64,000 nucleotides of DNA from Thiotrichales bacterium (GCA_018658305.1 JABHVM010000011.1:3551-67550), one strand, 5' to 3'; shown: positions 50,358 through 53,183, numbered from the stretch's first letter. The notes: generated by a model from the letters alone, not told the origin. Made by a program: numbers and translations.

Positions 50358-50440
50358 ATAAAGTAGTATATTCTACAAGATTATTTATAGGATGCAACTG
50401 TTTTCAGAAAAGAGAGTTGACAGAGGTGAGAATATTTAGG
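50358..50440. repeat. about 75-bp direct repeat, copy 1 (its partner lies at 52282-52350)
   Basis: About 90% identity over ATATTCTACAAGATTATTTnTAGGATGCAACTGTTTTnAGAAnAGAGAGTTGACnGAGG. Confidence 0.7.
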
Positions 50441-50485
50441 GTCAGGAATAATTAGGAATAATTAGGGTCAGAGTGTAATTTATTC
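50431..50485. repeat. 27-bp repeat family copy 2 (AATAATTAGGGTCAGAGTGTAATTTAT) with a partial internal duplication
   Basis: The same core occurs at 334-360 and 53157-53183. Confidence 0.7.
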
Positions 50486-50616
50486 AAAGCCTGATAGGAG
50501 CGGTTAAGGTAATACCCTTTATTGCCCTCACTTAGAGGGGTCGTTATTATTTATTGTGTCGCTTGATGTTGGAAGCGTTTTGCAGCGTTTATCGTGATAT
50601 GCTATACTCAATGATT

Positions 50617-52209
50617 ATGAAGAAACTCCCTTTAGCCATCACTACTTTTGCAGACATTCGTGATCCAAATGAAAACTATCTCTATATAGATAAAACCGCA
50701 TTCGCTTACAGGTTGATTGATTCGGGCAGGTACTACTTCCTCTCTCGCCCCAGACGCTTTGGTAAATCCCTGTTTCTGGACACCCTAAGCGACCTTCTGC
50801 AAAGTAAAAAAGAGCTCTTCAAAGGGTTAGCGGTTTATGATAAGTGGAATTGGGATACAAGCTATCCTGTGATGAATATCTCGCTCAATAGCGGTAACTT
50901 TAGCAGTAGAGAGAGTCTTACAAAAAGCATTCTCCATACGCTAAAAAATGTACAGAGAGATCTTAAAATAGAGTGTGATCCACAATCTGAACTCTCAGAC
51001 TGTTTCGATGATCTTATCAAAAACGCCTACGACAAATACCAACAGAAAGTCGTCATCCTAATTGACGAGTATGACAAACCGATCCTCGACAACATAGAGA
51101 ACAGAGAGCAGGCACTAGTTGCCAGAGATATACTAAAGAGCTTCTACAGCGTCATCAAAGATAATGACCGCTACATAAAATTTGTGTTCATAACAGGAGT
51201 CTCTAAATTCTCCAAAATGAACCTATTTAGTGGACTTAACAACCTAACTGACATAACCATTATGTCAGACTACGCAGATATCTGTGGCTATACCCAAAAC
51301 GACATAGAGAGTCACTTTGCAGAGCATCTTGTCGATGTAGATCTAGCCAAACTAAAAGAGTGGTACAACGGCTATAACTACCTAGGCGGAGAAGATAAAA
51401 GAGTCTACAACCCCTTTGATATTCTGCTGTTTATAACTAACGGCTGTAAATATAAAAACTACTGGTGGTCAACAGGCAACCCCAGCTTCCTGATTAAAAA
51501 GCTAGCACAAGAAGATTACTACATTCCAGACCTAGAAAATATCGTCGCATCAGAAGAAGTTTTAGAGACCTTTGATGTGGACAATATCGACCTCGTCGCA
51601 CTACTGTGGCAGACTGGCTACCTCACCTTTGAAGAGGAGATAACCAGAAGAGGGAAGATATTCTACAAACTAAAGCTCCCCAACAGAGAGATACAATCCT
51701 CCCTGAATGAGCTATTTATACAATACCTAACCAGACAGACCAACGAAGCGATTCGCCACCAAGACCACCTCTACGATGCACTAACGGGAGATATTAGTGA
51801 CTTAGAGCAGGCACTCACCGCACTCTTCGCATCCATCCCCTACAACAACTACGCCAACAAAATAATAGAGAAGTACGAAGGGTACTACTCATCGGTCGTC
51901 TACACCTACTTTATGTCGCTAGGATATCCAACCATCTCCGAAGATCCAACCAATATAGGGAGAATAGACCTTACCATTCAACTCCCCAATAGAACCGTCA
52001 TCATAGAGTTTAAAGTAGATCAACCGCAACAAGCAATGCAAGGTGAATTGCCGTCAGGCAAGAGAGGGCACCCTGGGGTGGAGCAGATCAAAGAGCAAAA
52101 GTACTACCAAAAGTACCAAAAGCCAGGGGCTAATGAGATCTACATAGTAGGCATCAACTTCTCTAGTGAAGATAAAAACATCACCGAGTTTGAGTGGGAG
52201 AGGGTTTGA
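50617..52209 (+). CDS. AAA-ATPase-like domain protein with a C-terminal PD-(D/E)XK nuclease-like domain
   Basis: The N-terminus MKKLPLAITTFADIR is the typical start of the predicted AAA-ATPase family. The central region has ILIDEYD; the C-terminal region is PD-(D/E)XK-like. The TATACT -10 abuts the start. Confidence 0.65.
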   Translation: MKKLPLAITTFADIRDPNENYLYIDKTAFAYRLIDSGRYYFLSRPRRFGKSLFLDTLSDLLQSKKELFKGLAVYDKWNWDTSYPVMNISLNSGNFSSRESLTKSILHTLKNVQRDLKIECDPQSELSDCFDDLIKNAYDKYQQKVVILIDEYDKPILDNIENREQALVARDILKSFYSVIKDNDRYIKFVFITGVSKFSKMNLFSGLNNLTDITIMSDYADICGYTQNDIESHFAEHLVDVDLAKLKEWYNGYNYLGGEDKRVYNPFDILLFITNGCKYKNYWWSTGNPSFLIKKLAQEDYYIPDLENIVASEEVLETFDVDNIDLVALLWQTGYLTFEEEITRRGKIFYKLKLPNREIQSSLNELFIQYLTRQTNEAIRHQDHLYDALTGDISDLEQALTALFASIPYNNYANKIIEKYEGYYSSVVYTYFMSLGYPTISEDPTNIGRIDLTIQLPNRTVIIEFKVDQPQQAMQGELPSGKRGHPGVEQIKEQKYYQKYQKPGANEIYIVGINFSSEDKNITEFEWERV

Positions 52210-52281
52210 AGAGTTTGCCTAAATAATTCGTGTAATAGATAGTTTGCTGTATAAGCTATCTATTCGTAAGTTAGTTGATGA

Positions 52282-52350
52282 ATATTCTACAAGATTATTT
52301 TTAGGATGCAACTGTTTTTAGAAGAGAGAGTTGACGGAGGCGATAAGTTT
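52282..52350. repeat. about 75-bp direct repeat, copy 2
   Basis: Matches 50358-50440. Confidence 0.7.
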
Positions 52351-52517
52351 TATGTACGATAGCTCTTCTGAATTAACAGATGTATAAAAAATATTTTATT
52401 TAAAGGTTTAATCTACTAATGTTTGCAAGTGGAGTTATAGAGATAATAGAAGGTAGGTTGAGTCGCTCTCTAGTTGAGTCTGCACTCTATTTACATATTG
52501 ATATAGCACGACTTTTG

Positions 52518-52548
52518 CACACACACACACACACACACACACACACAC
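52518..52548. repeat. (CA)15 dinucleotide microsatellite
   Basis: A perfect 31-nt CA run 47 bp upstream of the cheA-fragment ORF. Confidence 0.95.
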
Positions 52549-52595
52549 CAGGCAGTTAGCGCCAGCCTGCTGTATAAGTTTCAGTGCTCTGATCA

Positions 52596-53165
52596 ATGGA
52601 TCAGCCGCTAGAGTCAACTCTAGCAAAAAGTCTGCTAATGGCTGAAACAGCACCTCAAACCCAAGATAGCTTTCTACGCGTCAGCGCAGATAAAGTTGGT
52701 CGCCTGATGGATATGGTCGGCGAGCTGGGGCTAGTCTCCGCTGAAATTCTTCATCGTCCCGATATAGAGGAGCTTGAACTAGATGGGTTTGAAAACTTCG
52801 CACATCGCCTAGAGTTGCTGATTAGAGAGATCCAAGATGAATCCTCTGGACTGCGCTTAGTGCCAGTGGGTACTGTATTTAAACGAATGCAACGCGTGGT
52901 GCGAGACTTACAGCGCCAGACTGGCAAAAAAATAGAGCTACTCCTGGAGGGGGAAGAGACCGAAGTTGATAAAGTGGTAGTGGATAGTCTCTATGATCCA
53001 CTCGTCCATATTGTACGCAACTCCGCAGATCACGGTTTAGAGTCCCCAGAGATTCGTAAAGAGAGTGGCAAGGGCGAGACTGGACGAATAACTCTGTGCG
53101 CACTGCAACAGGGAGGGGAGGTTCAGATCACCATTCAGGATAATGGGCAGGGGCTAAATAATTAG
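52596..53165 (+). pseudogene. cheA: cheA remnant: P3 dimerisation and the proximal part of the P4 kinase domain only, truncated inside the G1 box
   Basis: Strong pattern match to the CheA P3/P4 region (VRDLQRQTGKKIELLLEGEETEVDKVVVDSLYDPLVHIVRNSADHG...ITIQDNGQGLN). P1, P2 and P5 are absent. The stop codon lies inside repeat copy 3. Confidence 0.7.
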
Positions 53166-53183
53166 GGTCAGAGTGTTATTTAT
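53157..53183. repeat. 27-bp repeat family copy 3
   Basis: AATAATTAGGGTCAGAGTGTTATTTAT. Confidence 0.7.

Follow-up and report, generated by a model that had tools for sequence, protein, structure and literature searches.

The cytoplasmic chemotaxis cluster of Rhodobacter sphaeroides encodes a split CheA4/CheA3 system (PMC6829392, PMC3591291). REPIN-RAYT systems consist of REP elements and RAYT transposases (PMC3337134, PMC3116915). Their inheritance is described as mostly vertical. The DUF1703-type family is patchy and often multi-copy, and horizontal transfer has been reported for it; its members include expanded paralogues in Cardinium cCpun (PMC6387759), and others are listed in PMC3424549. 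In a review, PF09820 is one of the domains assigned to RADAR, PARIS, and Old-tin (PMC10952713). Here we describe a locus from a Thiotrichales bacterium, within a stretch of 64,000 nt (the window; GCA_018658305.1, JABHVM010000011.1:3551-67550). Overall, the locus, in which a lone ATPase-nuclease gene lies beside the 5' remnant of an otherwise lost chemotaxis operon, is an ordinary, well-resolved recombination scar and not a transposon. At a probability of roughly 0.55, we read it as a fixed mosaic scar, formed by recombination, that lies between a NosP-like FIST operon and a U32 gene and has a REP-like element at each of two joints. The features are collected in Table 1.

Table 1 Features of the scar locus and related elements in the window
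Feature	Position	Strand	Remarks
Third REP-like copy	334-361	+	Directly after the stop of an unrelated gene; nhmmer 4.3e-9
Histidine kinase	47733-49181		Second gene of the FIST-histidine kinase pair, FIST gene first
FIST N+C domain gene, NosP-like (putative NO sensor)	49191-50330	-	Left scar border; Pfam FIST 3.3e-39, FIST_C 8.2e-21
Repeat A	50368-50438		71 nt directly upstream of the FIST gene
REP-like cluster	50428-50484	+	Full copy AATAATTAGGGTCAGAGTGTAATTTATT at 50457-50484, preceded by ATATTTAGGGTCAGG and AATAATTAGG, both degenerate half copies; nhmmer 3.1e-11
Terminator-like hairpin, T-rich tail	50524-50541	+	Upstream of the promoter-like site of the ATPase-nuclease gene; consensus match only
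Promoter-like TTTGCA-N18-TG-n-TATACT	50579-50608	+	TATACT at 50603-50608, TG extension; ends 8 nt before ATG 50617; consensus match only
ATPase-nuclease gene, intact, 530 aa	50617-52209	+	Alternative ATG 50611
Repeat A'	52282-52352		Second copy of the FIST-upstream region; 72 nt past the ATPase-nuclease stop, 243 nt before the cheA stub
(CA)15.5 microsatellite	52518-52548		Only microsatellite in the window
cheA stub, 189 aa of ~410 codons	52596-53165	+	P3 + P4 through N and G1 boxes
REP-like copy AATAATTAGGGTCAGAGTGTTATTTATA	53157-53184	+	Left (outer) edge is where cheA homology ends; gives the stop codon; nhmmer 1.6e-9
U32-family gene	53256-55283	+	Right scar border; Pfam Peptidase_U32 1.2e-67; gene callers' start 53268 or 53301

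The host is a marine sulfur oxidizer of the BS-GSO2 type of 'Thiotrichales', and its nearest named relative is Ca. Thiopontia autotrophica; the MAGs GCA_018654115.1 and GCA_018662655.1 of this lineage are draft assemblies. The neighbors of the scar are sensor, kinase, and metabolic genes. With 329.9 bits against the NCBIfam NosP model, the bordering FIST gene stays below the equivalog cut-off of 450; a second FIST gene shares only 27% identity with the first. When the locus (50331-53256) was aligned across 13 contigs from different samples, these were 99.7-100% identical except in the (CA)n tract, and the same gene order recurred in further contigs. The scar is real and fixed, as seen from the near-identity of the contigs compared. 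In tetranucleotide composition, the segment lies at the 75th percentile and is no outlier, and an argument for foreign origin from composition was rejected because the signal was not significant. A search of Rfam over 50200-53400 gave no match at E <= 1.

The ATPase-nuclease carries two domains. Its N-terminal part matches PF09820 (AAA-ATPase_like) over profile positions 1-201 of 201 (3.8e-63; 213.4 bits versus a cut-off of 26.1), and its C-terminal part matches PF08011 (PDDEXK_9) over positions 1-104 of 105 (3.1e-20; 72.6 bits versus 25.5). The Walker A/B motifs and the D...E-x-K nuclease residues are kept: G49-K50-S51, D150, D451, E464, and K466 do not vary across 34 homologues, and E151 is nearly invariant. 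The AlphaFold2 model of the protein (pLDDT 80, pTM 0.79) retrieved the Cdc6/Orc1 structures 1fnn (1.3e-4) and 2qby (7e-4) in Foldseek and, more weakly, RdrA (E 0.012). On this model, the N-terminal part is a predicted Orc1/Cdc6-like AAA+ ATPase fused to the PD-(D/E)XK nuclease domain, with a candidate winged helix seen in the model secondary structure alone. The product is most likely an ATP-dependent DNA-binding endonuclease. Searches of PHROGs, NCBIfam, and PDB sequences with the protein returned no match, and no PADLOC family was found at E <= 0.01, leaving the idea of a defense-related gene, put forward in a first-pass annotation, without direct support. That annotation had also placed a -10 box against the gene start, and the hexamer is indeed there, as one of 9 promoter-like sites returned by the scan overall versus 6.3 +/- 2.6 expected, so that these sites count as consensus matches only. 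Its position 8 nt before ATG 50617 would allow a leaderless or near-leaderless mRNA.

Flanking the ATPase-nuclease gene are the direct repeats A and A', previously given as about 90% identical around a single 530-aa gene and here refined to 71 nt with 63 identical positions (89%; 93% over the first 59 nt). Most of the features in the first-pass annotation lie where it placed them or at most a few bases away. They represent the longest dispersed direct repeat in the window, in which a 33-mer of A has only two sites, A and A' (0.00 expected from 100 shuffles), and repeat A was absent from the remaining window and from every fetched locus. On the minus strand, repeat A contains by eye TTGCAT-N16-TAGAAT, whose -10-like hexamer coincides with the left limit of the homology; the pair is missing from the promoter scan list because its -35 matches just 3/6. 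Moreover, A' overlaps a rightward promoter-like TTGACG-N18-TACGAT (52331-52360) in the consensus scan. The 71-nt repeat is a duplicated FIST upstream (promoter-like) region, and its borders carry no inverted repeats. Two other identities had been considered for it. A target-site duplication was rejected because the repeat is too long and too diverged, and a terminal repeat of a family-typical element was rejected because the enclosed gene has no transposase, integrase, or other recombinase domain and no comparable flanking direct repeats were found around its homologues in other genomes.

Beyond A' and the microsatellite lies the cheA fragment, which comprises only P3 and the proximal P4, as the first-pass annotation had described it. 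Its P3 is recognized by H-kinase_dim (3.4e-7; 31 bits versus a cut-off of 23), and its P4 is incomplete: only positions 4-50 of the 111 in HATPase_c align, and the 24.1 bits fall short of the cut-off of 26.4. On the NCBIfam CheA model of 670 positions, the stub covers 269-442, and it is without the F and G2 boxes and P5. The earlier statement that the fragment ends inside the G1 box within a 27-bp repeat copy holds for the repeat and fails for the box, since the DNGQG motif is complete and followed by L. The homology to cheA runs through ...DNGQGL, after which the full repeat consensus starts; the break is flush with the repeat, which supplies the final two codons and the stop (AAT AAT TAG). 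At the other end, the stub still has its native start, preceded by 243 nt of retained DNA, and the break lies 950 nt from the ATPase-nuclease gene. One contig has an A7-to-A8 frameshift within the stub.

The closest relatives of the stub are proteins of 390-411 aa that match from residues 2-10 at <=63% identity. Judged from these relatives, which are about 410 aa long and natively without P1/P2, the absence of P1/P2 is a native trait of a CheA4-like parent and not, as had been supposed, a truncation on that side; only the 3' portion is missing, along with the remainder of the operon. At three loci, the relative kinase opens a cheA-cheR-cheB-cheW cluster, and in one of them (L052) the genes that come next encode an MCP, a response regulator, and an Hpt+CheW protein. 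These kinase-first clusters match the split CheA4/CheA3 system (PMC6829392, PMC3591291). Both the stub and its closest relatives start at P3, and the Hpt+CheW partner was found in the L052 cluster; the 64-kb window holds neither this partner nor any CheW-like match or other che gene. Taken together, these comparisons support the view that the stub is a leftover of a chemotaxis-type (cheOp3-like) operon, of which it would have been the first gene.

The (CA) run reported downstream of the ATPase-nuclease gene is present with 15.5 units and ends 47 nt upstream of the stub. Its length varies from 11 to 29 units among contigs, and it is the sole indel polymorphism of the locus, which makes it a ready strain marker for this population. 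Changes in (CA)n cannot join the upstream ORF to the stub, since there is an in-frame TGA two codons ahead of the ATG.

The 27-nt repeat at the cheA end, also noted previously, has its partner beside repeat A; the two copies (50457-50483 and 53157-53183) are direct and identical at 26 of 27 positions. It represents a ~28-nt repeat, AATAATTAGGGTCAGAGTGTNATTTATT, that is also present in SUP05, mussel symbionts, Methylophagaceae, and others. The copy at 334-361 indicates that the element is dispersed, with three copies in 64 kb versus 0.02 expected, all of them direct singlets. The succession of half copies and a full copy seen in the left cluster recurs at four other loci. An 18-mer core was found in 36 genome stretches, about 26 of which carry the extended motif and belong to SUP05, Bathymodiolus symbionts, Methylophagaceae, other gamma MAGs, one Nitrospinales, and one Endozoicomonadaceae; as an estimated ~35 chance matches to the 18-mer are expected in 596 Gb, the ~10 hits without the extended motif were treated as chance. 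A Thiodubiliella assembly has 10 exact copies in 8 fetched loci, and many intergenic contexts were seen elsewhere. The core had 0 hits in viral contigs.

A link to RAYT genes is evident at other loci. In L039, an intact Y1_Tnp gene (Pfam 1.2e-12; NCBIfam REP_Tyr_transpos 2.9e-18, 66 bits versus an equivalog cut-off of 80) is closely bordered on both sides by inverted copies. In L049, one of the loci with half copies, inverted copies flank an internally deleted remnant of such a gene, the only close inverted pair seen, and at two further loci Y1_Tnp remnants adjoin REP-like copies. The window itself contains no RAYT gene. The folded copies gave minimum free energies of -1.4, -1.5, and 0 kcal/mol (z -1.8, -0.4, and +0.6), with no stable hairpin, and the palindrome is limited to weak AATAAT / ATT(T)ATT arms. 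No REP-like repeat was found beside ATPase-nuclease or cheA genes elsewhere. The repeat is a common intergenic RAYT-associated element that has no tie to the ATPase-nuclease gene and occurs in other genera too, a finding that the first-pass annotation had itself named as refuting its proposal. As a by-product, the analysis thus yields a previously unremarked RAYT-associated repeat common to several marine lineages.

The same 28-30-nt repeat yields chimeric metagenome contigs that join different organisms. One contig (L014), in which homology to the window sets in at the left boundary of REP copy 2, is a chimeric assembly: over its left 3338 nt it agrees at 100% identity with a SUP05 scaffold (GC 37% versus 43%), the overlap consists of the shared 30-nt repeat alone, and a natural rearrangement was rejected. 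A second contig (L064), which is interrupted at the opposite edge of that repeat, is probably a chimeric artifact too.

We searched for an empty or ancestral form of the site. The exact junction patterns expected for loss between A and A', and for loss between REP and REP', each gave 0 hits in metagenome contigs, and no syntenic relative was recovered. The nearest U32 protein other than the locus's own shares 72% identity over half the length and has a different neighborhood. Among contigs with the FIST gene, no variant arrangement was present except the probably chimeric L064. As no ancestral form was found, the order of events is read from the anatomy of the locus alone.

In the scar reading that we prefer, recombination would have left two unrelated remnants between the FIST operon and the U32 gene, namely the intact ATPase-nuclease gene and the opening 189 codons of a split kinase of the CheA4 type, the rest of a cheOp3-like operon presumably having been deleted. 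The deletion would end at the outer edge of the ~28-nt REP-like repeat, with the second direct copy beside the FIST upstream region. The order A-REP-gene-A'-stub-REP' could arise if a circular or duplicated intermediate recombined with the chromosome in one reciprocal crossover, and an unequal exchange between two diverged alleles would produce the same order; the joints may lie at A or at the REP copies, and either REP insertion or REP-REP recombination may have caused the deletion. As the window lacks a RAYT gene, activity of the REP-RAYT system in this genome is only putative. Several observations sit uneasily with this scheme. The REP-like element forms no stable hairpin (best -1.4 kcal/mol), and A' lies inside the REP-bounded segment, so that a single-step model would need a donor with a FIST-type upstream region. 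In addition, the stub ORF is uninterrupted although A and A' differ by 11%, which is mildly unexpected for an old pseudogene.

The first-pass annotation had proposed that the ATPase-nuclease gene is mobile cargo whose insertion made the 71-nt repeats, as target-site duplication or terminal repeats, and destroyed the operon. We regard this as decidedly unlikely, even though the window's longest dispersed repeat encloses the gene exactly on both sides, and the gene has the highest GC3 among the 22 window genes and is only 69% identical to its nearest homologue, as opposed to >=90% between NuoM and that of Ca. Thiopontia. The patchy, multi-copy family with its reported horizontal transfer also speaks for mobility, as do the many homologues on short contigs and those that form single-gene islets amid housekeeping genes. 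However, repeats of 71 nt with 11% divergence and the absence of any transposase, integrase, or terminal inverted repeats count against it, homologues elsewhere lack comparable flanks, and the tetranucleotides do not stand out. Moreover, the 5' end of cheA is native, with its upstream DNA retained, and the break falls at a REP-like copy, 950 nt downstream of the ATPase-nuclease gene. The recombination scar and the operon leftover are supported, and the gene as the cause of the loss is not. It is very improbable that the 189-aa product of P3 and partial P4 is a functional short protein, for example a dimerization-domain decoy, with expression tuned by (CA)n. Its uninterrupted ORF with its own ATG, its presence in contigs from 478 collection blocks, the hypervariable repeat 47 nt upstream, and the promoter-like site in A' would fit such a role. 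Without the F and G2 boxes and P5, however, it can neither be a kinase nor couple to receptors; the TGA before the ATG keeps (CA)n from fusing an upstream ORF to it; one contig carries the frameshift; and the remaining short hits come from genes that are frameshifted or broken, with no conserved short family. As the locus barely varies among contigs, its conservation is uninformative.

An import of the whole 2.7-kb REP-bounded segment (gene, A', (CA)n, and a pre-truncated stub) through a resident REP between FIST and U32, in which case the operon was never native there, is unlikely. The two direct REP copies with 26/27 identity would suit it, and identical REP sequences in co-occurring genera are cross-species homology patches; no other che gene lies in the 64 kb, and both enclosed genes are without close relatives (63% and 69%), although such low identity says little, since the native U32 and FIST genes are also without close relatives. 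The segment nevertheless contains A', a local FIST-upstream copy that a foreign donor should lack, its composition is not anomalous, and the empty junction predicted by an import had 0 hits. A long shot is that the two direct REP-like copies define a 2.7-kb cassette, RAYT-mobilizable or moved by REP recombination, for gene-sized cargo, here the ATPase-nuclease. If this were true, the REP-RAYT element shared almost unchanged by SUP05, BS-GSO2, Methylophagaceae, and Nitrospinales would provide portable homology between unrelated marine bacteria. Under the scar reading, the locus in itself is a small evolutionary relic recording the loss of a cheOp3-like operon in an abundant sulfur oxidizer of oxygen-minimum zones, and it also carries a member of a large uncharacterized ATPase-nuclease family.

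Comparing the locus with the described systems, the predicted ATPase module resembles Cdc6/Orc1 and, more weakly, the RdrA of RADAR. Unlike RADAR, however, no PADLOC model matched, no RdrB-like deaminase or other partner gene is present, and the effector is a fused PD-(D/E)XK domain. With the DUF1703-type family, the gene shares the identical two-domain architecture at full profile length, the Walker A/B and D-E-K residues, a patchy, island-like spread, and an uncharacterized function; it differs in being a single copy, 69% identical to its nearest homologue, between two copies of a duplicated upstream region. The probable parent of the stub resembles R. sphaeroides CheA4 in being without P1/P2 and beginning at P3, and the relative in L052 precedes cheR, cheB, cheW, an MCP, a response regulator, and a CheA3-like Hpt+CheW gene, whereas here 189 of ~410 codons remain, the partner genes are absent from the window, and the nearest relative reaches <=63%. 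As for REP/RAYT systems, the repeat is likewise short (~28 nt), dispersed, and extragenic, with copies just after stop codons that mark rearrangement joints and inverted copies that flank a Y1/HUH transposase-like gene. In contrast to them, it is AT-rich, lacks a stable palindromic hairpin, and is often preceded by degenerate half copies, and the same sequence occurs in several families and another phylum, whereas mostly vertical inheritance is described for REPIN-RAYT systems.

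The scar between the FIST gene and the U32 gene reads, from left to right, FIST, A, REP, ATPase-nuclease gene, A', (CA)n, cheA stub, REP', and U32, where A and A' are the copies of a direct repeat and REP and REP' are those of a shorter, REP-like repeat found at two of the four joints of the locus. Every element listed by the first-pass annotation is present, namely the repeats, the bracketed gene, the (CA) tract, the cheA ORF, and the 27-nt repeat. The locus is indeed the scar of a lost chemotaxis operon, as had been proposed, but its anatomy shows that the ATPase-nuclease gene was not the agent of the cheA truncation, since the loss ends at a REP-like copy.

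Features of the cheA scar (window coordinates)
Feature	Position	Size	Description
Repeat A	50368-50438	71 nt	direct, 89% identical to A'
27-nt repeat	50457-50483 and 53157-53183 (stub end)	27 nt	also at 334-361 with one mismatch
ATPase-nuclease gene	50617-52209	530 codons	intact, between A and A'
Repeat A'	52282-52352	71 nt	direct copy of A
(CA)15.5 tract	52518-52548		only microsatellite in the window
cheA stub	52596-53165	189 codons	CheA dimerization domain and first half of the ATP-binding domain

The alignment of 50331-53256 across 13 independent contigs showed 99.7-100% identity with the length of the (CA) tract as the sole gap, and the arrangement is thus not an assembly artifact. With so little variation at the locus, sequence conservation is uninformative on function. 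Over all contigs examined, the tract ranges from 11 to 29 units within 2.9 kb of sequence that does not otherwise differ. This hypermutable tract is a strain marker, and several contigs terminate inside it. Exact window proteins were found in many marine low-oxygen metagenomes, Saanich Inlet included, and in "Thiotrichales bacterium" MAGs. The NuoM of the window falls in a cluster of at least 90% identity with that of Candidatus Thiopontia autotrophica, the representative of the BS-GSO2 clade of sulfur oxidizers (PMC8359478).

The stub covers positions 269-442 of the 670-position CheA model and is at most 63% identical to any relative. Its nearest proteins in an exhaustive search have 390-411 residues, with the match beginning within their first ten residues, and the closest word-indexed matches start about 20-30 residues ahead of the conserved LRVxADKV motif. 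In three relatives, the kinase gene heads a cheA-cheR-cheB-cheW cluster, in what we take to be the cheOp3 order. In the compared locus L052, genes for a large MCP, a response regulator, and an Hpt+CheW protein come next in the cluster, while the 490 nt upstream of the kinase are too short for P1 and P2 and are interrupted by stops in all translated frames. Their counterpart is the split kinase CheA4/CheA3 encoded by the cytoplasmic cluster in Rhodobacter sphaeroides (PMC6829392, PMC3591291). Collectively, the starts of the relatives, the L052 upstream region, and the CheA4-type kinase indicate that the absence of P1 and P2 is native, and the stub is the 5' piece of a gene rather than an internal fragment.

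At the other end, homology to the relatives extends up to and including QDNGQGL. The ORF has the whole G1 box, which is not cut short within as the first-pass annotation had it; the very next base opens the repeat consensus, which contributes two Asn codons and the stop. As the cheA homology meets the repeat without a gap, the outer edge of the REP-like copy marks exactly where the loss ends. The 3' half of cheA and all downstream che genes are absent anywhere in the window. The stub cannot provide kinase activity or receptor coupling, and an in-frame TGA two codons before its ATG excludes a fusion with the small ORF spanning the (CA) tract. We regard it as a pseudogene remnant, although the ORF is intact and proof is thus lacking. 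In the metagenome contig L056 (ERZ4200947 NODE_379), A8 replaces A7 at about position 401 (window 52926-52932) and splits the stub ORF, which is either a true frameshift variant or possibly a homopolymer sequencing error.

A begins 37 nt upstream of the FIST ATG, and A' duplicates this region without a FIST gene behind it. They form the longest dispersed direct repeat of the entire 64 kb; a 33-mer derived from A occurs in the window at these two sites only (chance expectation, none), and A was found neither elsewhere in the window nor in any fetched locus. By eye, the minus strand of A carries TTGCAT-N16-TAGAAT, whose -10-like hexamer coincides with the left edge of the A/A' homology and which the automatic promoter scan missed because the -35 matches at only 3/6 positions. 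A' overlaps a rightward promoter-like site pointing toward the stub. A is most diverged in its last 12 nt, where it grades into a degenerate REP-like half copy; the A/REP joint may thus have formed at microhomology.

The first-pass annotation had asked whether the repeats, given as 75 bp, were a target-site duplication or terminal repeat. A length of 71 nt with 11% divergence argues against this, as do the facts that no recombinase gene lies between the copies, that terminal inverted repeats are absent, and that homologs of the ATPase-nuclease gene elsewhere lack comparable flanks. A/A' reflects duplication of an upstream region rather than the footprint of a transposon. The alternative that the repeats are a common intergenic repeat holds for the RAYT-associated 27-nt pair but not for A/A'.

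The simplest account of the deletion would be insertion of a REP into cheA followed by REP-REP recombination. The order of the locus could have been reached by several routes. In two simple ones, a circle joins the chromosome by a crossover, either at A (the circle bearing A-REP-gene and the chromosome A-stub-REP) or, for a circle bearing REP-gene-A'-stub, at a REP already present between A and U32. Alternatively, two diverged FIST-region alleles could have exchanged unequally, which would produce the same order. Exact patterns of the two predicted deletion or empty junctions gave zero matches in metagenome contigs. No syntenic relative of the locus was recovered, because the nearest U32 homolog sits in a different neighborhood. 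Similarity of the U32-family protein (53256-55283) to other U32 proteins (up to 72% identity; these are typically 750-770 aa long) is confined to its N-terminal ~53%. None of the top matches has a counterpart of the C-terminal half, and the gene may therefore be a product of fusion or rearrangement in its own right. The FIST protein, whose gene is followed by a histidine kinase gene, resembles the nitric-oxide sensor NosP at 330 bits, below the 450-bit equivalog cut-off. Two such NosP-like FIST and kinase pairs lie inverted on either side of the scar (47733-50330 and 57402-60109) and are old paralogs (FIST, 27% identical; kinases, 37% over about 290 residues).

The ATPase-nuclease protein contains full-length PF09820 AAA-ATPase_like (3.8e-63) and PF08011 PDDEXK_9 (3.1e-20) domains, and the Walker A, Walker B, and D-E-K nuclease residues are invariant across 34 homologs. 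By consensus match only, a promoter-like TTTGCA-N18-TG-n-TATACT ends 8 nt before its ATG, in agreement with the -10 box first noted at the gene start, and a terminator-like hairpin lies farther upstream. Homologs number in the thousands across many phyla, many on short contigs, the closest being 69% identical. Two close homologs are single or tandem genes flanked by housekeeping genes; one lies downstream of smpB and adjoins a Gp49/HTH pair, which we read as a HigB/HigA-type toxin-antitoxin. In metagenome contig L058 (4365-7566), two tandem paralogs lie between def and ilvB, and their 91% identity over the first 300 nt points to recent tandem duplication in the gene family. In the literature, this uncharacterized family goes by the name DUF1703 and has expanded, been transferred horizontally, and recombined in Cardinium (PMC6387759, PMC3424549). 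The AlphaFold2 model (pLDDT 80, pTM 0.79) is closest to Cdc6/Orc1 initiators (1fnn, 1.3e-4; 2qby, 7e-4), with weak likeness to RADAR RdrA (E 0.012). Our best guess is an ATP-dependent DNA-binding AAA+ module predicted to control the fused PD-(D/E)XK endonuclease. The suggested role as defense cargo is possible but unsupported, as no sequence match was found among PADLOC, PHROGs, NCBIfam families, or solved structures. Composition offers weak evidence of recent import: the tetranucleotide distance of the segment is at the 75th percentile, although the GC3 of the gene is the highest of 22 window genes.

The most reusable results are the REP-like family shared across lineages and the chimeric contigs to which it tends to give rise. 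The 18-mer core, scanned in one genome per species (596 Gb), returned 36 stretches, about as many as the estimated chance matches. Roughly ten (e.g., Roseburia, Mesobacillus, and Gloeomargarita) share only the 18-mer itself, and about 26 carry the extended consensus AATAATTAGGGTCAGAGTGTNATTTATT, often with one to three degenerate half copies ahead. The carriers of this consensus form a coherent group. They are a SUP05 scaffold; several thiotrophic symbionts of Bathymodiolus, among which the eight loci from the Thiodubiliella assembly hold ten exact copies; one MAG each of the Methylophagaceae, Nitrospinales, and Endozoicomonadaceae; and further gammaproteobacterial MAGs. None of these loci encodes relatives of the ATPase-nuclease or CheA. 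From SUP05/Thioglobaceae and mussel symbionts to the BS-GSO2-like window organism, the ~28-nt motif is nearly unchanged between families and even phyla (window copies at 334-361, 50457-50484, and 53157-53184; other loci including L018, L021, L023, L025, L036, L038, L039, L046, and L049). Exact copies were not found in viral contigs. A second short motif, AATAATGGGGACAGGCTACTTT, recurs beside the element in Thiodubiliella loci L025, L046, and L050 and may be a second repeat family; CAATGGGGTAATATTAGGC, after REP' (53200-53218), bears it a faint likeness. The public MEGAHIT contig L014 (ERZ27237597 k141_29735) is chimeric across the 28-30-nt repeat (3309-3338): its left 3338 nt match a SUP05 scaffold (GC 37%) at 100% identity, and the DNA that follows belongs to the window organism (GC 43%). 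MEGAHIT contig L064 (ERZ27237639 k141_232240) breaks at the opposite edge of the same repeat (about 1148-1187) and is probably chimeric as well.

Four loci in four genomes link the repeat to a single transposase lineage. In L039, an ORF tightly flanked by two inverted copies matches Y1_Tnp (1.2e-12) and the NCBIfam REP-associated tyrosine transposase model (66 bits, below the 80-bit equivalog cut-off). L049 retains an internally deleted remnant of this gene between inverted copies, and in L036 and L021 remnants adjoin a repeat copy. There is no RAYT gene in the window, and our literature search found no link of RAYT or REPIN with the taxa carrying the motif. A stable hairpin is one of the defining features of REP/RAYT systems, but the 27-nt element lacks it, and we therefore call it REP-like rather than a proven REP; however, the defining arrangement of such systems, inverted repeat copies around a transposase gene, is matched in L039 and, around the remnant, in L049 (PMC3337134).
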